Positions 2,029 to 18,917 of a stretch of DNA of 41,106 bases are shown here, piece after piece. Origin of the DNA: Betaproteobacteria bacterium (GTDB taxonomy: Bacteria > Pseudomonadota > Gammaproteobacteria > Burkholderiales > SG8-39). Under the pieces are notes generated by a model. The model saw only the letters and a list, made by a program, of their open reading frames with translations. It did not search any database and was not told the origin of the DNA. The position numbers were made by a program, and so were the translations under genes. The stretch spans positions 1-41,106 of the forward strand of contig VBCP01000068.1 of assembly GCA_005888925.1 (NCBI GenBank), given 5' to 3'. Within the stretch, counting starts at the first letter, position 1; each line of letters opens with the position of its first letter.

Positions 2029-3174
2029 GTACGTATCGCTCCGCGCTGGCGCCGACTCGGGCCAGCGGGCGTTATCGATCTTCGGCCGCTGCGATGCAGG
2101 CCGCGGCTTGCCGTCCCAGCCGATCTGCTCCATGTAGTAGTAGAGCTGGAACGCGAAGCCGTCCGGGTCGATGGCGAAGGCGCAGTAGTCGATGCCCGGG
2201 AAGAGCTCGGACGGCAGGTACTTGATCTCGGCGCCCTGGCCCTTGAGGAACGTGACAGCGTCCCGCAGTTGCCGGTAGCTGCCCATCTGCAGGCCGAACG
2301 ACATCAGCGTGGTATGCGCGCTCAGGCCAAGCTCGTCGCGCAGCGCGAGCGGATAGAGCGCCATACAGTGATGCTCGGTATTGGCGCGCAGGAACACGCA
2401 GCGATGCCCTTGGTATTCGACCTCCTCGGTGACGGTGAAGCCCAGATCGTCGCGATAGAACGCGAGCATGGCTTCCATGTTCTCCACGAACAGGCGCACC
2501 GGCCCATGCCGCACGATCTTGAACGGCCGCGCGACCTTTTCGATCGGGATGCCCTGCGCAGTCGCGTCGAGCACTTCGGCCAGCTCGGACTTGTGCGGCA
2601 GCTGCGGCGGCTTCGCGTAGCGCACGCCGTACATTTCGCGCGGCTTCGAATAGCCGTCCCAGCCGACTTGTTCGATGCCGTAGTAAAGCTCGTTGGTGTG
2701 CCCTTCCGGATCGGGCGGATAAAAGTGCCAGTTCGAGCCGGGCAGATCGCGTCCCGCGCGGCGGATCGGCTTGCCGCGTTTCGTGAACCAGTCGAAGGCA
2801 TCCGAGATTTCCTGCAGCGAACCGACCTGCCAGGTGATCTGATTAACGGTGCCTTGCGGCTTCGCCGCCCATGCGTTCACCGCGGCATAAGCGCCGCGTG
2901 GAAAGAACACGAACGAATGATGATCGGTGCCGTGGCGCGCGAAGTAACCGATGGTGGGCCCGACCTTACCGCGCTTGTCTTCGGGCAAGCGCGGCGTGAA
3001 GTCGAGCGGATCGGAAATGCGGAAGCCGAGCAAGCGGCAGTAGAAGTCCTTGCTGCGCTCCGGATCCGCAACGTTGAGGCCGAAATGGCCGAGGCGCCGG
3101 ATGCGGAACGGCCGCGGCCAGCGCACGCCGCCGAGGTCGAATTCACCCTGCTCTGCAGGCGAGTCGCGCTTCAT
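1996..3174 (-). CDS. two-domain VOC (glyoxalase / extradiol-dioxygenase-like) family protein
   Basis: 392-aa ORF with two repeats of the VOC module (RRLGHFGLNVADPERSKDFYCRLLGFRISD... and VRLFVENMEAMLAFYRDDLGFTVTEE...). Its 3' end overlaps the convergent esterase gene by 33 nt. Confidence 0.75.
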   Translation of the reverse strand: MKRDSPAEQGEFDLGGVRWPRPFRIRRLGHFGLNVADPERSKDFYCRLLGFRISDPLDFTPRLPEDKRGKVGPTIGYFARHGTDHHSFVFFPRGAYAAVNAWAAKPQGTVNQITWQVGSLQEISDAFDWFTKRGKPIRRAGRDLPGSNWHFYPPDPEGHTNELYYGIEQVGWDGYSKPREMYGVRYAKPPQLPHKSELAEVLDATAQGIPIEKVARPFKIVRHGPVRLFVENMEAMLAFYRDDLGFTVTEEVEYQGHRCVFLRANTEHHCMALYPLALRDELGLSAHTTLMSFGLQMGSYRQLRDAVTFLKGQGAEIKYLPSELFPGIDYCAFAIDPDGFAFQLYYYMEQIGWDGKPRPASQRPKIDNARWPESAPARSDTYLGEPFLGPLG

Positions 3175-3198
3175 GTCGCTAGTATAAGATCGCCTCGC

Positions 3199-4503
3199 AT
3201 GATCAGCGTCGAGCAGAACGAACTGATGACGCGCGTCGGGCCCGGCACGCCGTGCGGCAAGCTGCTGCGCCGCTACTGGCAGCCGGTGGCGCTCGCCGAC
3301 GAGATGAGCGGGCCGCGGCCGGTGAGGCCGGTTCGCATCATGGGCGAAAACCTGGTCTTATTCAGGCAGGAGAACCAGTACGGGCTGATCGAGCGCCAGT
3401 GTGCCCATCGCGGCGCCGATCTCGCTTATGGCCGCCTGGAAGACGGCGGACTGCGCTGCTCGTTCCACGGCTGGTTGTTCGACGTCAACGGCAGGTGCCT
3501 GCAGACGCCGGCTGAGCCCGCCGGCAGCCGGCTCTGCGAGCACGTGCGGCTACGCGCCTATCCGGTACAGGAAAAGAGCGGCATCCTCTTCGCCTATCTC
3601 GGCGAGGGCGAGGCGCCGGCGTTCCCGCACTTCGATGCCTTCGTCGCGCCCTCCGAGTACACGTTCGCGTTCAAGGGCTACTGGGACTGCAACTGGCTGC
3701 AGGCGCTCGAGGTCGGCATCGATCCCGCGCACGCTTCGTGGTTGCACAAATTCTTCGAGGACGAGGACCCGGCGGCGAGCTACGGCCGGCAGTTCCGCGG
3801 CCTGCCGTCGGACGCGCAGATCCCGATCTCCAAGCTGCTGCGCGAGTTCGATCGCCCCGAGATTCGCGTCGAGCGCACCGACTACGGCATGCGGCTGCAG
3901 ACGCTGCGCAAGCTGAGCGCTGCGCAGACGCACATCCGCGTCACCAACATTCTCTTTCCCCAGGCGTTCGTCATCCCGATGAACGCCGAGATGACCATCT
4001 CCCAGTGGCACGTTCCGGTCGACGACACCGGCTGCTACTGGTACTCGATCTTCACCAGCTTCGGCGCGCCGGTCGATAAGGACACGATGCGCAACCAGCG
4101 CCTGAAAACTTATCCCGCGCCGGATTACAAGCCTATTTTTGGAAGAAGCAATGGTTGGGGCTTCGACGCCGGCGAGCAGAAGTCGCAGACCTTCACCGGC
4201 ATGGGCTTCGACATCAACATCCACGACCAGTGGGCCTGCGAGTCGCAGGGGCCGATCGCCGACCGCAGCCGGGAGAACCTCGGCAGCACCGACAAGGGCA
4301 TCGTGCTCTATCGCCGGCTGCTGATAGAAGCGATCCGGAAAAACGACGCCGGCGAGCGGCCGCTGATGGTGCTCGATCAGCAAAAAGCGGTCGAGCTCAA
4401 GGGCCCGCCCGCGATCGACGGCATCGGCCCGACCGAAGGCATGGACGAGTACTGGAAGGTCGCGGACGAGAAGCGCCGCCGCCAGTCTGCCTGGGCGGCG
4501 TGA
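3199..4503 (+). CDS. Rieske [2Fe-2S] non-heme-iron oxygenase, alpha-subunit-only (phthalate-family-like) type
   Basis: The real start is ATG 3199 (MISVEQNELMTRVGPGTPCGKLLRRYWQPVA). The longer track ORF from 2269 is antisense to the VOC gene. Rieske motif CAHRGADL...(x)...CSFHGW lies at about 3400-3468. Mononuclear-iron motif E-x3-D-x2-H-x4-H is present (EVGIDPAHASWLH). Confidence 0.85.
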   Translation: MISVEQNELMTRVGPGTPCGKLLRRYWQPVALADEMSGPRPVRPVRIMGENLVLFRQENQYGLIERQCAHRGADLAYGRLEDGGLRCSFHGWLFDVNGRCLQTPAEPAGSRLCEHVRLRAYPVQEKSGILFAYLGEGEAPAFPHFDAFVAPSEYTFAFKGYWDCNWLQALEVGIDPAHASWLHKFFEDEDPAASYGRQFRGLPSDAQIPISKLLREFDRPEIRVERTDYGMRLQTLRKLSAAQTHIRVTNILFPQAFVIPMNAEMTISQWHVPVDDTGCYWYSIFTSFGAPVDKDTMRNQRLKTYPAPDYKPIFGRSNGWGFDAGEQKSQTFTGMGFDINIHDQWACESQGPIADRSRENLGSTDKGIVLYRRLLIEAIRKNDAGERPLMVLDQQKAVELKGPPAIDGIGPTEGMDEYWKVADEKRRRQSAWAA

Positions 4504-5864
4504 ACCTCCTCAAAGAGATCGAGAGCCGCGGCCTGAAGGCCGTGCGCTTCTCATTCGCCGACCAGCATGGCGTGCTGCGCGGCAAGACGCTCGCGGCGAG
4601 CGAAGCGAAGAGCGCGCTGGATCGTGGCGTCACGGTAACCAGCACCCTTCTGCTGAAAGACACGTCGCACCGGACCGTCTTCCCGGCTTTCACCCCGGGC
4701 GGCGGCGTCGGCATCCCCGAGCTGCAGGGCGCGGCCGATATCCTGATGATGCCCGACGCTTCGACGTTCCGCGTGCTGCCCTGGGCAGCGGACACGGGCT
4801 GGGTGCTGTGCGACCTGCGGCTGCAGGACGGCGGCGCGGTGCCGTTCGATTCGCGCGCCGTGCTGCGCGAGGCGCTCGAGAAGCTCGGCGACTACGAGTT
4901 CATCGCGGGCCTGGAGGTGGAATTCCACGTCTTCAAGATTGCGAACGCCCGCCTGCAGCCCGAAGACGCGGGGCAGCCGGGCACACCGCCGGACGTGGAG
5001 CTGCTCACCACCGGCTACCAGTACCTCACCGAGCAGCGCTACGACCTGATCGATCCGGTGGTCCAATTGCTGCGCGATGGATTGGCCGAGCTGCAGTTGC
5101 CGCTGCGCTCGTTCGAGGTCGAGTTCGGGCCGAGCCAGTTCGAATTCACGCTCGCGCCGCTCGGCGGGCTCGCGGCGGCCGACGCGATGGTGCTGCTGCG
5201 CAGCGCCGTCAAGCAGATCGCGCGGCGCCACGGCTACCACGCCACCTTCATGTGCCGGCCGAAGCTGCCGAACGTGATGTCGAGCGGCTGGCACCTGCAT
5301 CAATCGCTCGCGAAGGGCGGGCGCAATGCGTTCACGGCCGAGCGCGAGGATCTCTCGGAGACGGGAAAAAACTACCTGGCGGGCCTGCTCGCCCATGCGC
5401 GCGGCGCCTGCGCGTTCAGCACGCCGACGATCAACGGCTACAAGCGCTACCGGCCCTACTCGCTTGCGCCCGATCGCATCATCTGGGGCAAGGAGAATCG
5501 CGGCGCGCTGCTGCGCGTGATCGGCGGCCCGGGCAATCCCGCGACGCGCATCGAGAACCGCATCGGCGAGCCGGCGGCGAACCCGTATCTGTATTTCGCC
5601 TCGCAGATCTATTCCGGGCTCGACGGCATGGCAACGCGCCCCGGCCTGCCGCCTTCCGCCGACACGCCGTACGAGGCGAAGGCTGCGCTCCTGCCGCACA
5701 CCCTCGCCGAGGCCATCGCAGCGCTGCGCCTGGATAAGGCGCTGCGCGAGGGGATCGGTGAAGCGTTCGTCGACTACTACTGCAAGATCAAGGAGGCCGA
5801 GATCGCGCGCTTCAACCTGGAGGTCAGCGAATGGGAGCATCGCGAATACTTCGATCTCTTTTAG
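4500..5864 (+). CDS. glutamine-synthetase-family protein (gamma-glutamyl-amine ligase-like, PuuA/GmaS/IpuC/TdnQ type)
   Basis: GS-like sequence starts at VNLLKEIESRGLKAVRFSFADQHGVLRGK. An in-frame GTG at 4500 overlaps the Rieske TGA (GTGA). About 454 aa with GS catalytic-domain motifs (EVEFHVF, FEVEFGPSQFEF, MSSGWHLHQSL, ENRIGEPAANPYL). The track ORF start at 4155 lies inside the Rieske gene. Confidence 0.85.
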   Translation: MNLLKEIESRGLKAVRFSFADQHGVLRGKTLAASEAKSALDRGVTVTSTLLLKDTSHRTVFPAFTPGGGVGIPELQGAADILMMPDASTFRVLPWAADTGWVLCDLRLQDGGAVPFDSRAVLREALEKLGDYEFIAGLEVEFHVFKIANARLQPEDAGQPGTPPDVELLTTGYQYLTEQRYDLIDPVVQLLRDGLAELQLPLRSFEVEFGPSQFEFTLAPLGGLAAADAMVLLRSAVKQIARRHGYHATFMCRPKLPNVMSSGWHLHQSLAKGGRNAFTAEREDLSETGKNYLAGLLAHARGACAFSTPTINGYKRYRPYSLAPDRIIWGKENRGALLRVIGGPGNPATRIENRIGEPAANPYLYFASQIYSGLDGMATRPGLPPSADTPYEAKAALLPHTLAEAIAALRLDKALREGIGEAFVDYYCKIKEAEIARFNLEVSEWEHREYFDLF

Positions 5865-7850: not shown

Positions 7851-8708
7851 TTGACGCGTTCCGCCGCGGCCCGGTGGCTGCTGCTCGCCACCTTGTGGTC
7901 GCTGCAGTTCATCTTCATGCGCGTGGCCGTGCCCGTGTTCGGCACGGCGCCGGTGGCCGAAGCACGAGCGCTTTTTGCCGCTTGTTTTCTCCTGCCGTGG
8001 GCGCTGTGGATCGCGCGCCTGCAACTCGCGCCGCTCGAGCACTGGCGCGATTACCTGGTTGTCGGGCTTGCCAACAACGTCCTGCCCTTCCTCTGCTTCG
8101 CCTGGGCCGCGACCGTCCTGCCCGCCGGCTATATGGCGGTGATCAACGGCACCGTGCCGCTATGGACCGCGATCTTTTCGGCGCTGATCCTGCACGAGCG
8201 GCTGCGCGCCGCACGCGTCGTCGGCTTCCTCCTCGGCCTCATCGGTGTGGGCATGATCGTGAACCTCGGCCCACTGGAGCTCAGCTGGCAAATCCTTGCC
8301 GCCACCGCTGCGAGCCTCACTGGCGCCGCGCTCTGGGGGTGGGCCGGCGTGCTGATCAAGCAGCGCTACGGGCGCCTGCCGCCGATGGCCGTCGCCGCGG
8401 GCTCGGTCGCTTTCGCCGCCGCCATCATGCTGCCGCTCTGGACGCAGGCGCCACCGCTCGAAGCCTGGACGCCCGTCGCGACGGCCAACATGGTCGCGCT
8501 GGGGCTTCTCTGCACTGGCTTCGCTTACCTGCCCTTCTTCACCCTGATCCGCGATATCGGGCCCTGGCGCACGCTGAGCGTCGGCATGATCGTTCCGCTG
8601 CTCGGGATTTTCTGGGGCTGGCTGTTCCTCGGCGAAGCCGTGATGCTGGGCATGCTCGCCGGCGCGACACTGGTGCTCGTCGCGCTAGTGCTCGTGATGA
8701 AGCATTAA
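7851..8708 (+). CDS. DMT-superfamily (EamA-like) transporter
   Basis: 285-aa polytopic membrane protein with about 10 hydrophobic segments and two EamA-like halves. TTG start at 7851, 1 nt after the AKR stop. The first TM segment requires this upstream start. Confidence 0.75.
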   Translation: MTRSAAARWLLLATLWSLQFIFMRVAVPVFGTAPVAEARALFAACFLLPWALWIARLQLAPLEHWRDYLVVGLANNVLPFLCFAWAATVLPAGYMAVINGTVPLWTAIFSALILHERLRAARVVGFLLGLIGVGMIVNLGPLELSWQILAATAASLTGAALWGWAGVLIKQRYGRLPPMAVAAGSVAFAAAIMLPLWTQAPPLEAWTPVATANMVALGLLCTGFAYLPFFTLIRDIGPWRTLSVGMIVPLLGIFWGWLFLGEAVMLGMLAGATLVLVALVLVMKH

Positions 8709-9118
8709 GTGATGGCGCCGGTCCAGCGGACCCAGAGCGCGATCAGCGCCACATTGCTCGCCGCGTACGCGATGAGTCGATGGAACACCTTGGTGTATGT
8801 GAGATGAATCAAGCTGTGCAACGCGCGAAGCGCGACATAGGCCCAGGCGAGATATAGCGCACGCGCATCGACGGTCGCCGTCACGTAGAACCCGAGACAG
8901 ACCACGTAGAACAGGACCGGCAGCTCGAGCAGGTTCATCAGGTTGCGGTTAGGGAGGCTCACTTCGCCTGGCACGTGCGCCGATTCGCCATAGCGGAAAT
9001 CGCGCGACGTCACCTGCCCACGCGCGGCTGCCCTGAAGCGCGCGGCGGGGATGAGGAGCAGCACGACGAATGTCAGGCCCGCGAGCGCGACCATCGGGTA
9101 AAGGATCGCGGCTTTCAC
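8705..9118 (-). CDS. MAPEG-family small membrane protein (possible membrane glutathione transferase/isomerase)
   Basis: About 137 aa with 4 hydrophobic helices: VKAAILYPMVALAGLTFVVLLLIP...NRNLMNLLELPVLFYVV...HSLIHLTY. GTG 9118 overlaps the upstream TGA (GTGA); ATG 9094 is an alternative. The longer track ORF (to 9346) is out of frame with, and overlaps, the DUF2848 gene. Confidence 0.6.
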   Translation of the reverse strand: MKAAILYPMVALAGLTFVVLLLIPAARFRAAARGQVTSRDFRYGESAHVPGEVSLPNRNLMNLLELPVLFYVVCLGFYVTATVDARALYLAWAYVALRALHSLIHLTYTKVFHRLIAYAASNVALIALWVRWTGAIT

Positions 9119-9735
9119 CCTTCGACCGGCAGGACCGTGATGCGGTATTCGTGCGAAAGCTTGCGCTTGCGCACCGGATCTTCGAGCTCCATGCGGAATA
9201 CCTTGCCCGGGCGGATACCACCTTTTGCGGCGAGCGTGCCGCAGAACATCGCCCAGCCCGGCTTCAGCGGATGGCGGCCCATGAGATCTTCCGGCGAGCG
9301 CATCGCGGTGACCGGGCCTTCCTGGTAGAGCTCGCCGTCGGACCACGAGCGCAGCACGAGCTTCTCCCAGTGCGCCTTGACGTCGTCATAGCGCCAGGCC
9401 TCGCTGTACATGGGCTTCGCGCAGAGCTGCTTGGAGAGCGATACGCCGATGGTCTCGGCCTTGCGGTCGGTGTGATCCGATCCCACCGTGACCCAGAGGC
9501 CGTCGGGCTTTGCGAGCAGCACGAACTCGACTTCGCCGCTCGTGTCCGGGCCGGAGACCTGAATCTCGGCAGCCGTGGTGAGCAGGTTGGCCGAGACCCG
9601 GTAGAAGATCGGTGTCGTCTTCGGCGGCTTGACGCCGATCTCCTCGAGCTCCCGGATGTGCTTCCTGAGCGCGGCTTCATCGCGGCCGGTCCAGCCGGCG
9701 ATGACCAGCTCGTGAAACTCGCCGATGGCTTGCAT
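9115..9735 (-). CDS. DUF2848-family protein (unknown function)
   Basis: 206 aa: MQAIGEFHELVIAGWTGRDEAALRKHIRELEEIGVKPP...GEVEFVLL...VGSDHTDRKAE. This matches my memory of the DUF2848 signature. ATG 9735 shares one nt with the upstream TAA (TAATG). Confidence 0.65.
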   Translation of the reverse strand: MQAIGEFHELVIAGWTGRDEAALRKHIRELEEIGVKPPKTTPIFYRVSANLLTTAAEIQVSGPDTSGEVEFVLLAKPDGLWVTVGSDHTDRKAETIGVSLSKQLCAKPMYSEAWRYDDVKAHWEKLVLRSWSDGELYQEGPVTAMRSPEDLMGRHPLKPGWAMFCGTLAAKGGIRPGKVFRMELEDPVRKRKLSHEYRITVLPVEG

Positions 9736-11192
9736 TAGGCGACTTTGCGCTTCGCCGCCGGCGACGGGATGTCGTAGCTCGCCATGAGGTCGTCGACCAC
9801 GCGGTGGAACTCCGTCCACGGCGCTTCGCGGAAGCTGTGGTTGCGCACGATGAAGGACGCGCCGGCGTAGAACTTCTCGTACTGCAGGTGCCGGCCGGCG
9901 AACTCGGAGCCGATGAGATCCCAGACGAGCTTGTAGAGCTTCATGCGTTCGAGGGCCCCGAGCTGAGGCGTCTGCCAGTATTTTTCGAACAGCTCGCGCA
10001 GGTGACCGTCGTGCATCACCGAGACGTCCGCCGGCATCTGGAACACGCCGCCGCCGACCAGCTCGCGCAGCGCGTCGATGATCGACGAATGGCTCTCGGT
10101 GCACCAGTTGAGCGCCGCGTACATATAGCGCCGGTTGAACGTCATCCCGCCCTCGGGCCAGTCCTCGGCATCCTGGATCTGCCCGGCGATCATGCCGCCG
10201 AGCGCCGCCTCCAGCGCGGCGAAGCGGCCGAGCACCTCGCGTACCGCGGGCACTTCGTTGGCGCCGGAGGCCTGCGCGATCTTGCTCGCGAGACCCACGA
10301 TCAGCTTCAGCTTCTCGTGGAAGCGCACGTTCGACTGATGGTTGCCGTAGCAGTGCCCCGGCGTCTTGATGTAGATCTCGCGCGCGAGGATCGCGTCCAT
10401 ATGCACGAACACGCGCTCCCAGGGCACTTTCACGTTCTCGCACATCACCATCGAGTCGGTCTCGTCGAAGCGCCAGGTGAGCGGGTTCTCGAACTCGCAG
10501 CTCGCGTAGCGCTCGAAGGGCTTCCTCGACCAGAGCGTCACGCCCGGGGTGTTGACCGCGATCGCGCAGGTCACGGATTCGGCGAGCTGCGTCGGCGCGA
10601 GCGGCAGCAGATTGCCGATCCAGATCTCGTTCGCGAACACCGCGCCGGTGGCGAGCATCTTCATGCCGCTGATCACGAGGCCGTCGTCATCCTCGCGCAC
10701 CACGCGCAGCGAGGGCACCGGAAGGTTCTGCTTCTGGTAGAACTCGGGGTTGCGCGCCGCCTGCGGCGGCAGCACCGCATACACGCCGTAGACGTCCTCC
10801 TTGCGCATGTGCTCGTAGTAGCGCAGGAGGTTGCCGGCGTACTGGCCGAACACCGGCGCATTCATCGCCATGCCGGTGACGAAGCTCGAGACGTGGTCGG
10901 GCGAGCGCCCGAGCAGGCCATGGCTCATCGCCGCGATCGCCCGATGAAGATGGGTGCGCTTGGCCAGATCGTCCTTTGTCTTGGCGCGCAGGAAATAGGC
11001 GCTGTAGCGCTCCTTGCCCTCGGCGAAGCTGAACGCCGGATCGGCGCGCTTCAGGTCGTAGATCGCCGCCATCGAGCGCGCGGCGTTGCGAAAGCCCGGA
11101 TGCGTGGTGACGTCGTCGACGCGCTCCGAGCCGATGTAGACGACCCGGCCGTCCTTCAGCGATTCGAGGTGCTCAGCGCCGCTCTTTAGCAT
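9735..11192 (-). CDS. HpaB-family (4-hydroxyphenylacetate 3-monooxygenase oxygenase-component-like) two-component flavin-dependent aromatic hydroxylase
   Basis: 485 aa from ATG 11192 (MLKSGAEHLESLKDGRVVYIGSERVDDVTTHPGFRNAARSMAAIYDL), the typical HpaB/PheA1/TftD N-terminus. GGAAGGAGG lies upstream. The track ORF start at 11339 is an out-of-frame run through the cupin gene. Confidence 0.85.
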   Translation of the reverse strand: MLKSGAEHLESLKDGRVVYIGSERVDDVTTHPGFRNAARSMAAIYDLKRADPAFSFAEGKERYSAYFLRAKTKDDLAKRTHLHRAIAAMSHGLLGRSPDHVSSFVTGMAMNAPVFGQYAGNLLRYYEHMRKEDVYGVYAVLPPQAARNPEFYQKQNLPVPSLRVVREDDDGLVISGMKMLATGAVFANEIWIGNLLPLAPTQLAESVTCAIAVNTPGVTLWSRKPFERYASCEFENPLTWRFDETDSMVMCENVKVPWERVFVHMDAILAREIYIKTPGHCYGNHQSNVRFHEKLKLIVGLASKIAQASGANEVPAVREVLGRFAALEAALGGMIAGQIQDAEDWPEGGMTFNRRYMYAALNWCTESHSSIIDALRELVGGGVFQMPADVSVMHDGHLRELFEKYWQTPQLGALERMKLYKLVWDLIGSEFAGRHLQYEKFYAGASFIVRNHSFREAPWTEFHRVVDDLMASYDIPSPAAKRKVA

Positions 11193-11583
11193 GGCCTGCC
11201 TCCTTCCCGGAGGTCTCGTAATAGTGGATTTCGTGCAGGATGCACCCCCCCTTCGACGTGAAGGGGCCATGGTGCACGCCCGGCGGGCGGCAGGCGTAGG
11301 TCGGCGCGAAGCACTGCTCGCCGCCGCGTCCCTGCGCATCGTTGCCGACGATCAGGTCGCCGAGCACTACGTACACCTCCTCCCAATGATCGTGCACGAA
11401 GGGCTCGGTGGAAAACGCGCCCGGCTCGATCTTCAAGAGGCGCGTGCGGCTGCCTTTCTTCGCCGTCTCGTCGAGGTCCGATGCCAGGATCTTCTGGTAG
11501 AAGCCCGGCGGATAGCCCGGCGGGCGCTCCCAGCCAGTGTTGAGATCGACTCTTACGAACTCGAGATGCTGCTTGGGCTTCAT
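11173..11583 (-). CDS. small monocupin protein
   Basis: 136 aa with a cupin-type His/Glu cluster (FVHDHWEEVYVVLGDL...PPGVHHGPF). ATG 11583 shares one nt with the EthD TGA. The 3' end overlaps the hpaB-like start by 20 nt. Confidence 0.65.
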   Translation of the reverse strand: MKPKQHLEFVRVDLNTGWERPPGYPPGFYQKILASDLDETAKKGSRTRLLKIEPGAFSTEPFVHDHWEEVYVVLGDLIVGNDAQGRGGEQCFAPTYACRPPGVHHGPFTSKGGCILHEIHYYETSGKEAGHAKERR

Positions 11584-11951
11584 CAGGCACCCTCCTCGTT
11601 GCCGTCGATCCAGGGCGCGCGGAAAACCTCCTCCTGCGCCATCGCCTGGTGAACGACGCTTCCTTCATAGAGCGGAAACTGCTTGAAATCCTCGCGCGCC
11701 GCGGCGCGTGCCGGCGACGCGAACGCGGCTTCCATGGACTCGAGCGATTCGAACTCGAGCTGCGCGAGCAGCACCGTCTTGCCGCGGTTCACCGCAAACG
11801 GGTCGTGCCAGTCGAGGGCGGTGTGCAGCACGACGCGCCGCATGCCGGGCCAGCGCGCGAGCAGCGGCACATGCAGCTCGCGGTAGCGCTCGACGAAACT
11901 CTCGGCGTCGACACCCGTGACGTCGTAGCGCACGAAGTAAGAAACGCTCAT
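11583..11951 (-). CDS. EthD-domain (dimeric alpha/beta-barrel) protein
   Basis: 122 aa from ATG 11951: MSVSYFVRYDVTGVDAESFVERYRELHVPLLARWPGMRRVVLH...LLAQLEFESLESMEAAFASPA. This is an EthD/TIGR02118-like pattern. ATGA overlap with the MarR stop. Confidence 0.65.
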   Translation of the reverse strand: MSVSYFVRYDVTGVDAESFVERYRELHVPLLARWPGMRRVVLHTALDWHDPFAVNRGKTVLLAQLEFESLESMEAAFASPARAAAREDFKQFPLYEGSVVHQAMAQEEVFRAPWIDGNEEGA

Positions 11952-12511
11952 GCCGCCTTCGTGTCGTGCAGCATGAACTGCAGCATCGCCACCGCGCGGT
12001 CGCCGGAGGCCACCAGATCGCGTGCGAGCAGCCGCAGCTGGCGGAAGCGCCGCGCGTCGAGACGCTCGAACAGCACATCGTTCACGCGGCGCTGGAACGG
12101 CGCGAGGCGCTCGAGCAGCTCGCGGCTCTTGAGGTTCGCCCTGAGGAGCACCCGGCGCCCGTCGGCCGGGTCGGCGACCTTCTCGAGGATGCCGCTCGCC
12201 ACGAGCTTGTTGGCCTCGATGGTGATGAAGGCGCCCGAGCGATGCAGCCGCCCCGCCACTTCGCCGACCGCCAGCAGTCCTTCGGCACGCGAGACCAGCA
12301 TCAGGATCTCGTACTGCGCCCCCGAGATGCCGACGATCGCCGCAAACGCATCGCGACAGGTATCCAGGCGATGCCCGTAGGCGATCAGGTCGTGGATCAG
12401 CCCGCGGAACTCGGCGTCGGAGCCTTCGACCAGCAGCGCCGCTCGCGAGACGGTGACCGGAGGTACCGCGTTGAATACGGGAGCGGGTTTGCGGCGGCGG
12501 GGCCGGGCCAT
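11948..12511 (-). CDS. MarR-family transcriptional regulator
   Basis: 187 aa with a winged-HTH core: ISGAQYEILMLVSRAEGLLAVGEVAGRLHRSGAFITIEANKLVASGILEKVADPADGRRVLL. First gene of the six-gene overlapped operon. Confidence 0.85.
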   Translation of the reverse strand: MARPRRRKPAPVFNAVPPVTVSRAALLVEGSDAEFRGLIHDLIAYGHRLDTCRDAFAAIVGISGAQYEILMLVSRAEGLLAVGEVAGRLHRSGAFITIEANKLVASGILEKVADPADGRRVLLRANLKSRELLERLAPFQRRVNDVLFERLDARRFRQLRLLARDLVASGDRAVAMLQFMLHDTKAA

Positions 12512-12570
12512 TGACCGCAGGATTCTGGACCCGCAGAATTAGCTTTGTCAATTAGCTTTCTCATCAAAGC
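12512..12570. promoter_or_regulatory. 59-bp divergent control region between the MarR operon and the FAD-monooxygenase operon
   Basis: This is the only non-coding DNA of the locus. It contains CCGCAGGATT / CCGCAGAATT (12515-12524 / 12531-12540) and a tandem AATTAGCTTT x2. TTGACA lies on the minus strand at 12546-12551, with CAGAAT 18 nt downstream on that strand, ending about 10 nt before the marR ATG. Promoter assignment is tentative. Confidence 0.4.
12537..12559. repeat. tandem direct repeat AATTAGCTTT (2 copies, 13-bp register); candidate MarR operator
   Basis: Read directly: gAATTAGCTTTgtcAATTAGCTTTctc. Confidence 0.5.
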
Positions 12571-13728
12571 ATGAGCGTCTTGATTGCCGGCGCGGGCCCG
12601 GTGGGGCTCGCCGCGGCCAACGTGCTCGCCGATGCCGGCATCGCGGTGAGCGTGCTCGAGGCCGAGCCGCGGCTGCCCGAGAACCTGCGCGCCTCGACCT
12701 TCCAGCCGCCGACGCTCGACCTCCTGGCGCGCTTCGGCGCCAGCGCTCGGCTGATCGAGATGGGGCGCGTCGCGCGCAAGGTGCAATACCGCGACCGCGC
12801 CGGCTGGATCGCCGAGCTCGACTTCGGCGTGCTGCAGGCGGACACGCAGCATCCCTACCGCGTGCAATGCGAGCAGTACCGGCTCAATCAGGTGCTCGCC
12901 GCACGGCTGAAGGCGTTGCGGTTCGGCGCCGAGGTCACGGCGCTCGACCAGGATGCCGATGGCGTCACGGTGACGATCAACGGCGGCGAAAAGCTGCGCG
13001 GCGACTGGCTGATCGGCGCCGACGGCGGCCGCAGCCGGGTGCGCGAGACGCTCGGCATCCCGCTCGAAGGCTTCACCTGGCCGGAGCGCTTCCTCGTGGC
13101 GAGCACGCCGTTCGATTTCGCGCAGGCGATCCCGCGGCTCGCCGAGGTCAGCTACTTCGCCGACCCGCAGGAATGGTTTTTCCTGCTGCGGGTGCGCGAC
13201 GTCTGGCGCGCGATGTTCCCCGCGAGGGCGGAGGAAACCGAAGCCGACATTCTTTCGGACGCGTCCATCGAGCGGCGGCTACAGCGCGTGCACGCCAAAT
13301 CCGGCCGCTACGAGATCGCGCACCGCACCCTCTACTCGGTGCATCAGCGCGTCGCGCAGAGCTATCGCCGGGGGCGCGTGTTCCTGGCGGGCGACGTGGC
13401 GCATCTCAACAATCCGCTCGGCGGCATGGGGATGAACGGCGGCATCCATGATGCCTTCAACCTGGCGGAAAAGCTCGCCGGCGTGATCCGCGGCGAAAAA
13501 CCGCCCGAGGAGCTTGAGCGCTACGAGCGCCAGCGCCGGCCGGTCGCGCTCGAGTACGTGAACACCATTACCATCGCCAACAAGCGCCACCTCGAGATGC
13601 GCGACGCCGAGGAGCAGCGGCGCTGGCGCGCCGAGCTCTCGCGCGCGATGGCCGACCGCACGGCCGAGCGCGAGTACATGCTCAAGCTCTCGATGATTGC
13701 CAGCCTGAGGAAATACGCATGCGCATGA
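12571..13728 (+). CDS. FAD-dependent (class A flavoprotein) aromatic monooxygenase
   Basis: 385 aa with the N-terminal dinucleotide fold MSVLIAGAGPVGLAAANVLADAGIAVSVLE, then DGGRSRVR and GDVAHLNNPLGGMGMNGGIHDAFNL motifs. Confidence 0.85.
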   Translation: MSVLIAGAGPVGLAAANVLADAGIAVSVLEAEPRLPENLRASTFQPPTLDLLARFGASARLIEMGRVARKVQYRDRAGWIAELDFGVLQADTQHPYRVQCEQYRLNQVLAARLKALRFGAEVTALDQDADGVTVTINGGEKLRGDWLIGADGGRSRVRETLGIPLEGFTWPERFLVASTPFDFAQAIPRLAEVSYFADPQEWFFLLRVRDVWRAMFPARAEETEADILSDASIERRLQRVHAKSGRYEIAHRTLYSVHQRVAQSYRRGRVFLAGDVAHLNNPLGGMGMNGGIHDAFNLAEKLAGVIRGEKPPEELERYERQRRPVALEYVNTITIANKRHLEMRDAEEQRRWRAELSRAMADRTAEREYMLKLSMIASLRKYACA

Positions 13729-14681: not shown

Positions 14682-14933
14682 ATGGCGCTGAGCCGTGCCC
14701 AGCTAAGCAAGGCCGTCGCGCACATGGAAGCCGGCGATTGGCACGCGGCGCATGAGATCGTTCAGCGCGATGAAGACTCGCCGCTCGCGTGCTGGGCGCA
14801 CGGCATTGTCCACATCATGGAGGGCGACCTGCCTAACGCGCGCTACTGGTACGCCCAGGCGAAGCGTGCGTTTCCATCGAAGCCCACGGCGGCTGGCGAG
14901 ATCCGCGCGCTAAAAACTGAATTAAGTACCTGA
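14682..14933 (+). CDS. small conserved-looking hypothetical protein (83 aa)
   Basis: ATG lies 3 nt after the TctC stop. Sequence is non-repetitive with normal composition (GDWHAAHEIVQ...CWAHGIVHIMEGDLPNARYWYAQAKR), unlike the spurious R/A-rich ORFs. No family recognised with certainty. Confidence 0.45.
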   Translation: MALSRAQLSKAVAHMEAGDWHAAHEIVQRDEDSPLACWAHGIVHIMEGDLPNARYWYAQAKRAFPSKPTAAGEIRALKTELST

Positions 14934-17900
14934 CCCCGATTTCCTGGAGCGCGGGCGCGCGCCGAGGCGGCGGCGGGTCGTGCCGGCGGCGGCGCCGAGG
15001 CGCGCGGCGATCAGCGCGCTGAATTCCTCGGCTGGCATCGGCCGCGCGAAGAGGAAGCCCTGGGCCTGCTCGCAGCCGAGCGTGCGCAGGAACGCGGCCT
15101 GCGAGTCGAGCTCGACGCCTTCGGCGATCACGGTGAAGCCAAGGGTGTGCGCCATGTCGACGATGGTGCGCACGATGGTGGCGTCGGCCTCGTCGTCGAG
15201 CACGTCGGCGACGAACGAACGGTCGATCTTGAGCGAAGCGAGCGGGAAGCGCGTGAGGTAGGCCAGGCTCGAGTAGCCGGTGCCGAAGTCGTCGATGGCG
15301 ATGCGCACGCCCGCGGCGCCGAGCGCACGCAGCACCTGGATCGCGTGATCCGGATCGTGCATCAGCTGGCTCTCGGTGATCTCGAGCTCGATCAGCGAGG
15401 GGTCGATGCCAGCCGCCGAGACGATGGCGCGGATGCGCTCCTCGAGGTCGTGCTGCCGGAACTGGCGCGCCGAGAGGTTGACCGCCACCGGCATCGCCGG
15501 TGCGCCCAGGCGCTGCCAGCTCTTCAGGTCCTCGCAGGCGCGCTTCAGCACCCATTCGCCCACGGGCACGATGAGCCCGGTCTCCTCGAGCACCGGGATG
15601 AATTCGACCGGCGCGACGCGCCCGCGCTCGGGATGGTTCCAGCGCAGCAGCGCCTCCGCGCCGCAGGGCAAGCCGTTCGTGAGATCGATCTTCGGTTGGT
15701 AATGAAGGCTGAACTCGCGCCGCTCGAGCGCGCGGCGCAGCTCGAGACCCATCTGCGCGCGCGCGCGGGTGCGCTGGTTGATGTCGGCGGTGAAGAACTG
15801 GAAGGCGTTGCGCCCGGACTGTTTGGCGCGGTACATCGCGGCGTCGGCCGCGCCGAGCAGCGTCTCGGCGTTGTCGCCGTCGGCGGGGAAGGTGGCGATG
15901 CCGATGCTCGCCGTGACCACGACTTCCTGGCCCTGGATGATCGCCGGCGCGGCGAGGCGGTCGATGATCTTCTGCGCCACGAGCGCGGCATCGTCCGGGC
16001 GCGCCAGGTCGCCGAGGATGACGGCGAACTCGTCGCCGCTGATGCGCGCCACCGTGTCGCCGTCGCGCAGCGCCGACTGCAGGCGCTTCGCCGCCTCCTG
16101 CAGGAGCTCGTCGCCCGCGGCATGGCCCTGGGTGTCGTTCACCAGCTTGAAGTCATCGAGGTCGATGAAGAGGACCCCGAGCGACACGCCGCGCCGGCGC
16201 GCCTGCACGATCATCAGCGAGAAGCGGTCCGAGAGCAGCGTGCGGTTGGGCAGCCCGGTGAGTGGGTCGAACTGCGCGAGGTAGGCGAGCCGCGCCTCGC
16301 TGTCCAGGCGATGCAGCGCCGCCGACACCATGCTCGCGGCGGCCGTCAAGAAGCGCGTTTCCTCGGGGCCGAAGGAGCCGGGCGCCTCGGCAACGGCGCA
16401 CACCACCCCGCGCGGACCGCCGTCGGCCGGCACCGGCACGGCAGCGAGCGCGCCGTAGCGGCGCAGCCATTCGAAGGGCAGCGGCAGTCCCTCCTTCCAG
16501 GGACCGTTGAGCACCACGGGCTCGGAGGCTTCCAGGAGCGGCGCGAGCGGGCTGTCGGCGTCGATGCGCGCCACCGCCGAGTCGGTCGAGGTCGAAGCAA
16601 GGCCGGCGACGCGGCGCAGCACCACTTCGCGCTCGCCGCTGCCGCGCTCGAGATAGGCGACGGCGCCGCCGCCGAGGCCCTCGAGCACGCTCTGCACCGC
16701 CTTCGCGACCAGCTCGGCCGGGTTGCGCTTGGAGAGCGCTGCCTGACCGAGGCGCGAGATCTTCTTCTGGTAGCGCGCCTGCGCGGCGCGGCGCTTCTCC
16801 GCGCTCATGCGCTCGGAGAGGTCGCGCGAATTCACCACCAGCACGCGGCCCTGCGGCGTGTCGAGCAGGCTCCTGCGGCTCTCCACCGGGAAGGTGCTGC
16901 CGTCCTTGCGCCGGTACTCGGTAATGACCGTGTTGGTCCGCCCGGCGACGCCAAGGAGCTCCGCGGTCTCGGTGCGCAGCGTGCCGGTCGACGCGTCGGG
17001 CCGGATGTCCCTCGCGCGGAGCTTCAGCAGCTGCGGCCGCGTGTAGCCGAGCTGCTTGCAGGCCGTCTCGTTGAAATCGAGCAGCCCCCCTGCGTTGAGG
17101 TCGAAGAGGAACACCATGTCGGCCGAGGAGTCGAGCGCCGTGCGAAAGCGCTGCAGCGCGGCCTCCTTCTCCTTCCTCTCGGTGATGTCCTCGATGATCG
17201 CGATCTCGTGCTGCGGCTCGCCGTGCGTGTTGCGCGCGAGCGCGACCGTGAGATTGACCCACACCACGGTGCCGTCCTTGCGCAAGTAGCGCTTCTCGAA
17301 CTGCACCGAGGCGAGGTCGCCCGAGCGCATGCGCGCGCGCTCATCATCGGTCTTGTCCCGGTCGTCGGGATGCGAGATGTCCTTGACCGAGCGGCCGATC
17401 AGCTCCGCCTCGGCGTAGCCGAGCATCTCGCAGAGCTTGCGGTTGACGTCGGTGAAGTGCCCCGCGAGGTCGACGTGCGCGATGCCGGAGGCGGCGAGCT
17501 CGAAGGTCTGCCGGAAGCGCGCCTCGCTCTCGGCAAGCGCGGCCTCGGCATGCTTGCGGGAGAGGAACTGGCCGATCTGCGCGCCGACCAGCAGCATGGT
17601 GCGCATCAGCCGCTCGTCGGGCTGCCGCACGATGCTGCTCGAGATGGAAAGCACGCCGACGACGCGGCCTTCGAAGGTCACCGGGAAGACGAGAGCGCCG
17701 TGCACCCCCGCCTCGCGCACGCGTGCGACCGGTGCCGAGCGCGCGTCGCGGCTCACGTCGGAACTCCACACCGGCGCGCCGCTCGCCCAGACGTGGCCGA
17801 TCAGCCCCTGGCCCGGCGGGATGCCGGCGCCGCGCGAGCTCTCGGCGAATTTCGCGAGCGGCCCGACGCCGCTCGACCAGATTTCCTCGCAGCGCATGAC

Positions 17901-18893
17901 GTTCGCCGCCTCGTCGAGCTGGAAATAGCGCCCGCAATCCCAGTTCTCGGCCTGACAGATCGCCTGCATCACCGCGCGCAAGGCGTCGGGGATGCTCTTC
18001 GCGTCCGCGAGATCGCGCGCCACGGCGTGCTCGAGCGCGACCAGGCGCTCCTCGCGCCGCCGCTCCGTGAGTTCGCGTCCGACGCCGCGGTAGCCGAGGA
18101 ATTCGCCGCTCGCTCCGTAGACCGGCTCGCCGCTGACCGACAGGAAGCGCACCTCACCGTCGGGGTCGATGCGGCCCATCTCGAAATCGCGGAACGGCTT
18201 TCGAGCCTCGAGTGCGGCGCGGTGCGCCGCCCAGCCGGCGGCGTCCGGATGGATTGACGGCCGGTCCCAACGTGCTTTGCCGAGCACCGGCTCGCTTGCC
18301 GGGCGGTGCTTCTCGGCGTGCGTCGTGCGCGTGATGCGGTGCTCGGCGTCGGTCTCCCAATAGAAGTCCGACGACAGCTCGACCAGGCTGCGGAAGCGCT
18401 CCTCGCTGTCGCGCATCACGGCTTCCGCCTGCTTGCGCTGCACGAACTGGCCGAGCTGGCGTGCGATCACGCCCATCGCCCGCAGCAGGCGCTCGTCGGG
18501 TTCGCGGGCGTTGCGCGAGGTCAGCGCGATTACGCCGATCGTGCGCGCGTCGGATATGACCGGGCAGAGAAAAGAGCCGCGCGACCAGCCTTTCGGCGCG
18601 AGCAACGCGCGCGCGTCGTTCTGCGTGTCGGGCACCCAGAGCGGCTCGCCGCTTGCCCAAGTGGTGCCGACCAGGCCCGCGCCCGGCGTCAGCGCGAGGT
18701 GCTGCGAATCGGCGACGAAGCGCTCCACTTCCGGGGTACCCCCCGACCACGACTCCTGCATGCGCATCACGCCGCCGCCCGTGTCGAGGCCGAAGTAACG
18801 CCCGCAGTCCCAGCCTTCGGCCTGGCAGATCGCCCGCAGTACTCCCTGCAGCGCCGAAGACACGCTGTCGGCTTCGGCGAGAACGCGCGTCAC
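14922..18893 (-). CDS. multidomain c-di-GMP signalling protein: GAF-PAS-GAF-PAS-PAS-(degenerate GAF)-GGDEF(SGDEF)-EAL
   Basis: 1323-aa ORF starting at GTG 18893. Two ICQAE(G/N)WDCGRYF-type GAF domains. PAS modules include SEERFRSLVELSSDFYWETD... and IIEDITERKEKE. The DGC domain has an RDGD I-site and RISGDEF (16026-16040). The EAL domain carries AEALLRW, ELEITE, DDFGTGYSSL and QGFLFARP. Confidence 0.85.
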   Translation of the reverse strand: MTRVLAEADSVSSALQGVLRAICQAEGWDCGRYFGLDTGGGVMRMQESWSGGTPEVERFVADSQHLALTPGAGLVGTTWASGEPLWVPDTQNDARALLAPKGWSRGSFLCPVISDARTIGVIALTSRNAREPDERLLRAMGVIARQLGQFVQRKQAEAVMRDSEERFRSLVELSSDFYWETDAEHRITRTTHAEKHRPASEPVLGKARWDRPSIHPDAAGWAAHRAALEARKPFRDFEMGRIDPDGEVRFLSVSGEPVYGASGEFLGYRGVGRELTERRREERLVALEHAVARDLADAKSIPDALRAVMQAICQAENWDCGRYFQLDEAANVMRCEEIWSSGVGPLAKFAESSRGAGIPPGQGLIGHVWASGAPVWSSDVSRDARSAPVARVREAGVHGALVFPVTFEGRVVGVLSISSSIVRQPDERLMRTMLLVGAQIGQFLSRKHAEAALAESEARFRQTFELAASGIAHVDLAGHFTDVNRKLCEMLGYAEAELIGRSVKDISHPDDRDKTDDERARMRSGDLASVQFEKRYLRKDGTVVWVNLTVALARNTHGEPQHEIAIIEDITERKEKEAALQRFRTALDSSADMVFLFDLNAGGLLDFNETACKQLGYTRPQLLKLRARDIRPDASTGTLRTETAELLGVAGRTNTVITEYRRKDGSTFPVESRRSLLDTPQGRVLVVNSRDLSERMSAEKRRAAQARYQKKISRLGQAALSKRNPAELVAKAVQSVLEGLGGGAVAYLERGSGEREVVLRRVAGLASTSTDSAVARIDADSPLAPLLEASEPVVLNGPWKEGLPLPFEWLRRYGALAAVPVPADGGPRGVVCAVAEAPGSFGPEETRFLTAAASMVSAALHRLDSEARLAYLAQFDPLTGLPNRTLLSDRFSLMIVQARRRGVSLGVLFIDLDDFKLVNDTQGHAAGDELLQEAAKRLQSALRDGDTVARISGDEFAVILGDLARPDDAALVAQKIIDRLAAPAIIQGQEVVVTASIGIATFPADGDNAETLLGAADAAMYRAKQSGRNAFQFFTADINQRTRARAQMGLELRRALERREFSLHYQPKIDLTNGLPCGAEALLRWNHPERGRVAPVEFIPVLEETGLIVPVGEWVLKRACEDLKSWQRLGAPAMPVAVNLSARQFRQHDLEERIRAIVSAAGIDPSLIELEITESQLMHDPDHAIQVLRALGAAGVRIAIDDFGTGYSSLAYLTRFPLASLKIDRSFVADVLDDEADATIVRTIVDMAHTLGFTVIAEGVELDSQAAFLRTLGCEQAQGFLFARPMPAEEFSALIAARLGAAAGTTRRRLGARPRSRKSGSGT

Positions 18894-18914
18894 GGCGTGC
18901 TCCAGCCGCAGCCG

Positions 18915-18917
18915 CTA
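18915..18917 (-). other. single in-frame TAG separating the REC-PAS-PAS ORF from the GAF...GGDEF-EAL ORF
   Basis: Both ORFs are in the same frame (20093-18893=1200). The minus strand reads ...GAG CAG AAG CGC GCG GAG TAG CGG CTG CGG CTG GAG CAC GCC GTG ACG... Confidence 0.9.

Follow-up and report, generated by a model that had tools for sequence, protein, structure and literature searches.

Six overlapping genes and a divergent gene pair

We analyzed a stretch of 41,106 nucleotides from a Betaproteobacteria bacterium (GenBank assembly GCA_005888925.1, contig VBCP01000068.1; Burkholderiales, SG8-39), hereafter the window, and focused on six overlapping minus-strand genes that encode a MarR-family regulator, an EthD-family protein, a small cupin, an HpaB-like oxygenase, a DUF2848 protein, and a MAPEG-family membrane protein. 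Gene coordinates and junctions were derived from the list of open reading frames (ORFs) and from direct reading of the minus strand, and families were assigned by comparing Pfam and NCBIfam profile scores with their cut-offs. The resulting features are compiled in Table 1. An earlier interpretation made from the DNA letters and ORF translations, referred to here as the sequence-only reading, had proposed these genes as a catabolic operon for aromatic compounds; its coordinates and all five junctions were reproduced exactly. It had missed the divergently encoded class A flavin adenine dinucleotide (FAD) monooxygenase and TctC receptor.

Table 1. Features of the operon, its control region and its surroundings (aa, amino acids; scores in bits)
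Feature	Position	Strand	Signature or remark
MarR-family regulator, 187 aa	11948-12511	minus	First gene of the operon; MarR_2 34.3 (Pfam)
Junction MarR/EthD	11948-11951		ATGA
EthD-family protein, 122 aa	11583-11951	minus	EthD 27.6 (cut-off 22); TIGR02118 46.4 (cut-off 30.5)
Junction EthD/cupin	11581-11585		TGATG
Small single-domain metallocupin (predicted), 136 aa, Cupin_7-like	11173-11583	minus	Cupin_7 23.8 (cut-off 27) and fold model
Junction cupin/HpaB-like	11173-11192		20-nucleotide overlap
HpaB-family oxygenase component, 485 aa	9735-11192	minus	HpaB_N 228.7 and HpaB 147.6
Junction HpaB-like/DUF2848	9733-9737		TAATG
DUF2848 protein, 206 aa	9115-9735	minus	DUF2848 252
Junction DUF2848/MAPEG	9115-9118		GTGA
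MAPEG-family membrane protein, 137 aa	8705-9118	minus	Last gene of the operon; GTG start; MAPEG 62.8
Divergent control region, 59 bp	12512-12570		Between the MarR and FAD monooxygenase genes
Sigma-70-like promoter, operon side	12551 to 12522	minus	TTGACA, 18-nucleotide spacer, CAGAAT
Sigma-70-like promoter, FAD monooxygenase side	12511 to 12539	plus	TTGACC, 17-nucleotide spacer, CAGAAT
Tandem 13-bp repeat, AATTAGCTTTGTC / AATTAGCTTTCTC	12537-12562		Overlaps the -35 element of the operon promoter
Class A FAD monooxygenase, 385 aa	12571-13728	plus	FAD_binding_3 217; divergent from MarR
TctC/Bug-family periplasmic solute receptor, 319 aa	13719-14678	plus	TctC 223
EamA protein	7851-8708	plus	Convergent with MAPEG
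TctC protein	548-1129		Flanking block 548-5864
PHB-depolymerase-type esterase	1087-2028		Flanking block 548-5864
Two-domain glyoxalase/extradiol-dioxygenase-like protein	1996-3174	minus	Flanking block 548-5864
Rieske/LigXa_C-type oxygenase	within 2269-4503		Flanking block 548-5864; by orthology
Glutamine-synthetase-like protein	within 4155-5864		Flanking block 548-5864; by orthology
1323-aa protein and response-regulator/PAS protein	14922-20093		Response-regulator/PAS protein at 18915-20093

From the overlapping start and stop codons, strict co-translation had been proposed. The sequence fits a single tight transcription unit, since a search of positions 8500 to 12700 detected neither promoters nor terminators inside the operon (2.0 terminator-like sites expected by chance) and the sole two sigma-70-like sites, which face each other, lie upstream of the MarR gene (0.3 expected by chance); strict co-translation is a hypothesis that goes beyond these data. 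The zero-spacer layout also turned out to be no special trait, because abutting or overlapping starts and stops are ordinary in this genome. Elsewhere in the window, the FAD monooxygenase and TctC genes overlap by 10 nucleotides and the genes for an aldo-keto reductase and the EamA protein are 1 nucleotide apart on the same strand. The closest relatives have spacers of 5 to 10 nucleotides at the HpaB-like/DUF2848 and DUF2848/MAPEG junctions, and the only junction constant among them is the 20-nucleotide overlap of the cupin and HpaB-like genes. In the window, the HpaB-like start has its own Shine-Dalgarno sequence, GGAGG, within the 3' end of the cupin gene. At the distal end of the operon, the stop codons of the MAPEG and EamA genes overlap in the palindrome TTAA (8705-8708), which leaves no space for a terminator between the convergent units; none was predicted there.

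Conservation of the gene neighborhood

A scan of species-representative genomes retrieved at least 599 loci with DUF2848 genes, and the best 80 (designated by the letter L and a number) were analyzed. Neighbors were counted within 8 kb, and 54 loci with less than 75% identity and at least 3 kb of flanking sequence were classified as distant. No partner was linked to DUF2848 as tightly as the cupin: 34 of the 54 distant loci had a cupin orthologue, 25 of them at a distance of no more than 3 kb and often with the two genes directly adjacent. An HpaB-like oxygenase was found in 26 and an orthologue of the window FAD monooxygenase in 6 of these loci, so that 31 contained a hydroxylase of one kind or the other. 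MarR regulators (21 loci), proteins of the Flavin_Reduct family (18), isochorismatase-family hydrolases (7), and EthD proteins (3) were less frequent, and MAPEG was absent (0/54). An amidase-signature enzyme, missed by the sequence-only reading, occurred in half of the distant loci (27/54; 21 within 3 kb). The same genes were seen from the side of the cupin: three arbitrary cupin homologues on long contigs were all accompanied by MarR, flavin reductase, HpaB, and DUF2848, and in all three cases also by an amidase or amidohydrolase and a transporter. Further neighbors included UbiD, OYE, and AhpD-like proteins, CoA ligases, D-glutamate-cyclase-like proteins, and transporters of the NMT1, TRAP, ABC, and MFS types.

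A number of points emerge from these data. (i) The co-occurrence of DUF2848 with HpaB-like oxygenases, and also with the cupin and MarR, is conserved across Alpha- and Betaproteobacteria. (ii) The cupin and DUF2848 form a conserved module with a regulator, a hydroxylase and its reductase, and an uptake system, to which an amidase is usually added. (iii) The window operon is a trimmed version of this module, which is found in hundreds of proteobacterial genomes; tblastn searches of the 41-kb window detected no amidase-signature enzyme, UbiD, OYE, or isochorismatase. The set of defined partners (MarR, hydroxylase, reductase or EthD, amidase, and transporter) should aid in de-orphaning a common proteobacterial catabolic pathway.

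Among the loci nearest to the window type outside the Burkholderiales, the operon genes are part of a larger cluster (L012, L015, L022, L025, L029, and L079). Its fullest form, in L015, comprises genes for a UbiD-family decarboxylase, an unassigned 214-amino-acid protein, MarR, EthD, an OYE flavin oxidoreductase, and DUF2848, as well as for the cupin, GntR, an amidase, another MarR, and HpaB. Such a cluster may have been compacted to give the window operon.

DUF2848 genes also occur without the cupin. In L031, L043, L056, L076, and L085, DUF2848 closes a string of genes for a D-glutamate-cyclase-like protein (DUF1445) and the TRAP components DctPQM, to which L085 adds an amidase; L057 has TRAP genes only. 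In four Methylobacterium loci (L032, L034, L047, and L050), DUF2848 is found with an MFS transporter, and in three of them with an amidase. These contexts suggest a broader role of DUF2848.

DUF2848 as a predicted member of the FAH superfamily

The window DUF2848 protein was modeled with AlphaFold from an alignment of 76 diverse family members (pLDDT 96.8). When this model was compared with the Protein Data Bank (PDB) using Foldseek, all of the 50 best matches listed belonged to the fumarylacetoacetate hydrolase (FAH) superfamily (E values of 9.5e-10 to 2.6e-5; TM-scores of 0.56 to 0.72). They were led by FAHD1 (E 9.5e-10; TM-score 0.69) and included YisK, HpcE, KDA dehydratase, diketo-deoxyrhamnonate hydrolase, the maleylpyruvate hydrolase 6jvw, the 4-oxalocrotonate decarboxylase NahK (5d2i), and FAH itself. 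The predicted structure is thus clearly that of an enzyme and has the C-terminal catalytic fold of FAH, a mixed beta-sandwich/roll.

Sequence searches gave fainter signals. The window protein had no match to the profile PF01557 (FAA_hydrolase) up to an E value of 10, but relatives that are 86 to 88% identical to it scored 24.7 to 25.5 bits (cut-off 23.9) over profile positions 9 to 186 of 214. Because single-sequence and profile searches of the PDB returned only marginal matches to HpcE (E 0.09 to 0.9), the homology is supported by the structural route together with the PF01557 scores of the relatives. In weak sequence alignments, the GT motif of DUF2848 aligns with TGTP of HpcE and its ExE motif with HHEIELVV of the FAH-family protein 4maq (E 0.37).

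The motifs conserved in the family are H26-x-x-E29, E68-x-E70, D87-H-T-D-R91, K102/K107, and G166-T167. Across the 76 diverse sequences, E70 and D87 were invariant (100%), E68 was kept in at least 90%, and H26, E29, T89, R91, K102, K107, and T167 were kept in at least 90 to 100%. By comparison with FAHD1 and FAH, E68, E70, and D87 (ExE...D) are candidates for a divalent-metal triad and the other conserved residues candidates for catalytic roles. In comparison with characterized members of the superfamily (FAHD1, HpcE/HpaG, maleyl- and fumarylpyruvate hydrolases, NahK, and KDA dehydratase), DUF2848 shares the fold (TM-scores of 0.6 to 0.72; E values down to 1e-9) and resembles them, at the level of sequence patterns, in ExE...D, D-x-T-x-R, GT(P), and an H-x-x-E pair on the first helix. 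It differs in its low identity (12 to 19%), in the lack of a PF01557 match for the window protein, and in its N terminus: members of the window clade comprise 203 to 206 residues instead of the approximately 225 to 235 of most DUF2848 proteins and lack roughly the first 20 residues, with a model that is still confident.

The structural model and the alignment thus argue that DUF2848 is a divergent member of the FAH superfamily. The sequence-only reading had viewed DUF2848 as a non-orthologous replacement of the FAH-type hydrolase; the type of function was right, but the protein is predicted to be an FAH homologue itself. No functional annotation was found for DUF2848 (about 1,400 clusters at 50% identity) or for its cupin partner (more than 7,000 clusters at 90% identity), the database names of homologues being "hypothetical protein," "cupin," "DUF2848 domain-containing protein," and "ChrR-like protein with cupin domain"; one was labeled "biotin operon repressor," evidently in error. 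The placement in the FAH superfamily and the candidate catalytic residues provide a concrete entry point into the enzymology of DUF2848.

A separate family of predicted small metallocupins

A structure model of the cupin, based on an alignment of 50 sequences, had a pLDDT of 90, with values below 50 for the C-terminal tail. The last approximately 13 residues form this disordered tail, and they are encoded over the ribosome-binding site and start region of the HpaB-like gene. The best structural match was the acetylacetone dioxygenase Dke1 (3bal; E 8e-7), with TM1459, KdgF, and DddK next in line, and no gentisate or homogentisate dioxygenase was among the 50 best matches listed. The protein had no match in NCBIfam and no significant sequence match in the PDB.

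Both the model and the alignment point to a metal-dependent cupin, with a small beta-barrel and His/Glu ligands provided by the two cupin motifs. Residues H64, W67, E68, E69, H105, E118, and H120 are invariant, but many relatives have Tyr instead of H66. The candidate metal-binding His/Glu residues, whose loss would have spoken against the sequence-only reading, are therefore kept. We consider the protein a predicted metallocupin and its dioxygenase activity putative. Like Dke1 and the other small metallocupins, it has a single barrel of similar size and candidate ligands at H64, H66, and H105; unlike them, it shows only 16 to 24% identity to these proteins, often has Tyr at position 66, and carries conserved motifs of its own (WEEV, GNDxxGxGG, and RPPGxxHGPF). 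These motifs set the protein apart as a member of a separate, uncharacterized cupin family, which is strongly conserved (53 to 72% identity across bacterial classes).

HpaB-like oxygenase, EthD, and the absence of a flavin reductase

With both the HpaB_N and the HpaB domain over its full length, the HpaB-like protein belongs to the group D oxygenase components, which depend on reduced flavin. It matched 13 solved oxygenases at E values of 1e-36 or lower, among them 4-hydroxyphenylacetate hydroxylases (approximately 1e-56) and chlorophenol 4-monooxygenase (3e-53). However, its scores for the HpaB equivalogs TIGR02309 and TIGR02310 (261 and 205 bits) were far below the respective cut-offs of 480 and 885. 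In the HpaB of Thermus thermophilus, the phenol is contacted by Arg100, Tyr104, and His142 and the carboxylate by Ser197 and Thr198. The corresponding residues of the window protein are R96, H100, and Y138, with the Arg kept and the Tyr and His exchanged, and two Leu residues in the place of Ser197/Thr198. Because of this pattern, the substrate is probably phenol-like but not 4-hydroxyphenylacetate. The classical HpaBC pathway for 4-hydroxyphenylacetate was rejected on the basis of the missed equivalog cut-offs and the changed substrate residues; no extradiol dioxygenase or downstream hpa-type gene was found in or next to the operon. The window protein had no exact match in public assemblies.

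The sequence-only reading had pointed out that a flavin reductase partner is missing, and a tblastn search of the 41 kb indeed detected no Flavin_Reduct homologue. This absence reflects a clade-wide property of the oxygenase. Two types of HpaB could be distinguished: among 17 loci with the window type (at least 62% identity), none had a nearby Flavin_Reduct gene and 11 had EthD, three of these also with an OYE flavin oxidoreductase, whereas among 21 loci with the other type (approximately 36% identity to the window protein), 19 had Flavin_Reduct and none had EthD. These counts are not phylogenetically independent, as close relatives account for 11 of the 17 loci with the window type, and the reductase-less pattern with EthD is common to at least two lineages, a Burkholderiales clade and several Alphaproteobacteria. 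In the loci analyzed, EthD occurred only with window-type HpaB and never with a flavin reductase. The window enzyme thus resembles HpaB/HpaC and the chlorophenol and nitrophenol 4-monooxygenases of group D in domain content, overall similarity, and the kept Arg100 equivalent, but differs from HpaB/HpaC in its equivalog scores, its active-site residues, and the frequent presence of EthD instead of a neighboring reductase.

EthD itself belongs to a family of dimeric alpha+beta-barrel proteins, had a weak match to ABM in Pfam, and found only BH0200, weakly, in a sequence search of the PDB. We know of no established function for EthD. Its distribution makes it an accessory bound to this HpaB clade. 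Reductases unrelated to HpaB oxygenases can supply these enzymes with reduced flavin in free form, and the window-type clade either relies on housekeeping reductases or has EthD aid in flavin supply, the latter being speculative. Of all the leads from this study, the most intriguing is the clean split between HpaB accompanied by a reductase and HpaB accompanied by EthD, which offers a testable approach to the function of EthD.

The control region and the divergent FAD monooxygenase-TctC pair

The MarR gene encodes a MarR_2 domain, and the control region upstream of it contains a tandem repeat, the units of which share the pattern AATTAGCTTT(G/C)TC. In the relatives L001, L003, L004, L006, and L014, this repeat is identical base for base, even where the upstream neighbor gene differs, and the flanking bases vary; the window holds no further copies beyond these two units. 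It is likely, judging from its position and conservation, that the repeat is a candidate MarR operator common to the operon and to the divergent FAD monooxygenase-TctC pair.

The nearest solved relatives of the FAD monooxygenase are the p-nitrophenol 4-monooxygenase PnpA (6ain; 9e-57) and the 6-hydroxy-3-succinoylpyridine 3-monooxygenase HspB (7da9; 3e-42), with which it shares a short single-component class A architecture. This relationship is one of sequence similarity, and the protein falls far short of every equivalog cut-off in NCBIfam. Orthologues with 44 to 66% identity were found beside DUF2848 and/or the cupin in eight loci (L040, L048, L061, L068, L073, L081, L083, and L086), including other genera such as Pigmentiphaga (L081) and Herminiimonas (L048). 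Because these orthologues directly adjoin DUF2848 and/or the cupin in other genera, the enzyme is functionally tied to the module and likely belongs to the regulon of the operon. The pair with TctC recurs in L003, L006, and L081. PnpA and HspB hydroxylate para to an existing hydroxyl group with loss of a substituent, giving para-quinone or para-diol products; PnpA is a benzoquinone-forming enzyme. The likeness of the FAD monooxygenase to them therefore suggests a para-diol or quinone intermediate.

Proposed pathway

With moderate confidence, we propose that the operon encodes a catabolic route under the control of MarR as a repressor, in which a ring is hydroxylated, opened or otherwise transformed by the cupin, and further processed by DUF2848, with EthD and MAPEG as clade-specific accessories. 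Gene organization, folds, conserved residues, and co-occurrence are the observations from which we infer each reaction and the class of substrate. The substrate is probably a hydroxylated aromatic or heteroaromatic compound that bears a carboxylate, the carboxylate being probable because a TctC receptor is attached. (i) Uptake would be aided by the TctC receptor. (ii) Hydroxyl groups would be added by the divergent class A enzyme that resembles PnpA and HspB, by the HpaB-type oxygenase, or by both, with the HpaB-type oxygenase drawing its reduced flavin from other parts of the cell's metabolism. This would yield a ring with two hydroxyl groups, which may be a para-diol like hydroquinone, gentisate, or 2,5-dihydroxypyridine. 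(iii) The small metallocupin would open this ring with O2 or transform it in another way. (iv) DUF2848, with its candidate ExE...D metal motif, would hydrolyze, decarboxylate, or isomerize the resulting 1,3-dicarbonyl or enol-acid product. MAPEG may handle electrophilic or quinone intermediates or take part in a glutathione-dependent isomerization.

The general logic of a catabolic operon with a hydroxylase, a cupin, and an FAH-type enzyme, as put forward in the sequence-only reading, is supported by the folds and by co-occurrence. The gentisate and homogentisate routes use a hydroxylase, a cupin ring-cleavage dioxygenase (NagI/HmgA), a maleyl isomerase of the glutathione transferase (GST) type (NagL/MaiA), and a hydrolase of the FAH family (NagK/HmgB), and are centered on the dioxygenase and the hydrolase. 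The present system resembles them in the order of its enzyme types, with a flavin hydroxylase, a cupin, and an FAH-fold enzyme under one regulator and, in the close clade, an attached GST (MAPEG or a soluble maiA-like protein). It differs in several respects. The cupins of these operons are single-domain, Cupin_7-like proteins of 126 to 136 amino acids, whereas gentisate and homogentisate dioxygenases are much larger, and the size and weak Cupin_7 score of the window cupin do not fit membership in the gentisate/homogentisate 1,2-dioxygenases. The FAH-fold protein is of the DUF2848 family, a bona fide MaiA or NagL is lacking, and an amidase, which does not occur in those routes, joins the module in half of the genomes. 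The system thus follows a familiar logic but is built from different, uncharacterized family members and different accessory genes. Literature searches returned nothing relevant on DUF2848/PF11010, on the Cupin_7/ChrR-like cupin family, or on the combination of EthD, cupin, and HpaB and the pathway as a whole.

Several observations weigh against the proposed route. The cupin is far smaller than the known ring-cleaving gentisate and homogentisate enzymes, its nearest structures include the non-oxygenases KdgF and DddK, and the second His of its HxH motif is Tyr in many relatives. For DUF2848, the assignment of metal ligands is based on a motif pattern and weak alignments (E 0.37), and the FAH superfamily matches include decarboxylases, isomerases, hydratases, and dehydratases, so that hydrolysis is one of several possible activities. 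Since DUF2848 is also found without the cupin, beside D-glutamate-cyclase-like and TRAP genes or MFS and amidase genes, its chemistry may be fairly generic. The frequent amidase and isochorismatase neighbors indicate a nitrogen chemistry that is absent from the window operon. Finally, the neighboring genes do not identify the substrate, as their contexts are too varied for one compound. Anthranilate or 3-hydroxyanthranilate, hydroxypyridines, pyrrole-2-carboxylate, gentisate, and hydroquinone were considered as substrates but could not be discriminated, and none is asserted.

Alternative functions of the module

The trio of cupin, DUF2848, and amidase could instead degrade a nitrogen compound, such as an amide, a lactam, a pyridone, or an aminophenol-type ring. 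In that case, ring cleavage by the cupin and C-C hydrolysis by DUF2848 would not be required; the cupin might be an isomerase or a deaminase, for instance, and DUF2848 a vinylogous beta-keto-acid decarboxylase. The window operon would be a reduced form that relies on an amidase encoded elsewhere. We consider this reading rather unlikely, although it is the most probable of the alternatives. The frequencies of amidase-signature enzymes and isochorismatases in the distant loci and the amidase or amidohydrolase in all three cupin-anchored loci agree with it, as does the Amidohydro_1 gene that two close relatives, L001 and L006, have after the operon. The structural matches are compatible as well, with decarboxylases and isomerases for DUF2848 (HpcE, NahK, and FAHD1) and non-oxygenases for the cupin. 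On the other hand, the operon is intact in the window in spite of the lack of amidase-signature and isochorismatase genes, the hydroxylases and the match of the cupin to Dke1 fit oxidative ring chemistry equally, and no specific nitrogen-containing substrate can be named.

A route closer to those of gentisate and homogentisate, in which the membrane protein MAPEG takes the place of the glutathione-dependent maleyl isomerase and a DUF2848 unrelated to FAH that of the FAH hydrolase, had been favored by the sequence-only reading and now appears improbable. MAPEG has a full domain match (62.8 bits, cut-off 23.4; profile positions 1 to 126 of 129) but no solved relative in a PDB sequence search. 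It is the last gene of the operon, following DUF2848, in the window and in L003 to L006, and other genes take this position in L001, L008, and L009. Near DUF2848, it was found in two of six scorable close loci and in none of the distant ones. MAPEG is thus no conserved part of the pathway but an accessory gene of some close Burkholderiales relatives, probably a recent addition; in annotation, it should not be read as a core component.

The isomerase idea draws some support from L008 and L009, which lack MAPEG; here, the place of the FAD monooxygenase-TctC pair is taken by a gene for a soluble GST, encoded divergently from MarR (L008:4129-4743 and L009:4614-5225). L006 has both kinds, with two GSTs (L006:3863-5088) in addition to MAPEG. 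The best NCBIfam match of the soluble GSTs is maleylacetoacetate isomerase (maiA) with 72 to 78.5 bits, the MAPEG-less loci reaching 78.5, but this is far below the cut-off of 171, and tblastn detected no soluble GST in the window; neither the window nor the GST genes beside the operon in these relatives thus encode an assignable MaiA/NagL isomerase. Moreover, the predicted FAH homology of DUF2848 removes the other half of the model, a maleylpyruvate hydrolase with the FAH fold (6jvw) is among the structural matches of DUF2848, and direct hydrolysis requires no isomerase. We know of no MAPEG protein that acts as a maleyl isomerase. The presence of two unrelated glutathione transferase families beside the operon is a hint of glutathione-linked chemistry in this clade, either isomerization or the handling of quinones, although the clade is narrow and the recurrence may be due to shared ancestry. 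A glutathione-dependent isomerase is therefore kept as an idea of low probability.

A bolder extension of the proposed route, which we regard as quite improbable, combines two claims: the cupin and DUF2848 would form a new and widespread cassette of two enzymes for opening and processing rings or ring-like enols of some abundant natural compound, and EthD would be the partner of the reductase-free HpaB clade, delivering or generating reduced flavin or otherwise freeing the oxygenase from its reductase. If true, this would be the first defined role for the long-orphan EthD family.

Least probable, and a very doubtful option, is a MarR-controlled regulon for the detoxification of quinones or electrophiles instead of a growth pathway, in which the hydroxylases, cupin, EthD, MAPEG or GST, aldo-keto reductase, and EamA exporter would jointly neutralize and export (hydro)quinones; the type of regulator, the weak match of EthD to ABM (EthD being related to the quinol-monooxygenase fold of that family), the PnpA-like FAD monooxygenase, the MAPEG or GST genes beside the operon, and the syntenic, convergent aldo-keto reductase and EamA genes of close relatives are in line with this, but outside the clade the module is accompanied by uptake systems (ABC, TRAP, TctC, and MFS), CoA ligases, and amidases, as in nutrient catabolism, and aldo-keto reductase and EamA genes never occur with DUF2848 in distant loci.

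Flanking genes

The operon has changed readily at its 3' end during evolution. In close relatives, the genes that follow DUF2848 or MAPEG vary and include those for a DapA/HpaI-like class I aldolase (L008:8607-9485) and for an Amidohydro_1 protein of approximately 555 amino acids (L001:11472-13151 and L006:11170-12837).

On the far side of the EamA gene, the block at 548-5864 encodes a second TctC protein, an esterase, a glyoxalase/extradiol-dioxygenase-like protein and, by orthology to the annotations of L003, a Rieske-type oxygenase and a glutamine-synthetase-like protein. Close relatives show synteny of this block, which resembles a module of its own for the oxidation of aromatic compounds, perhaps aromatic amines. 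The locus is also flanked by a gene for a 1323-amino-acid protein, next to that for a response-regulator/PAS protein. The 1595-amino-acid orthologue of the larger protein in L001 contains response-regulator, GAF, and PAS domains, and synteny of its gene with the operon extends to L001, L008, and L009.

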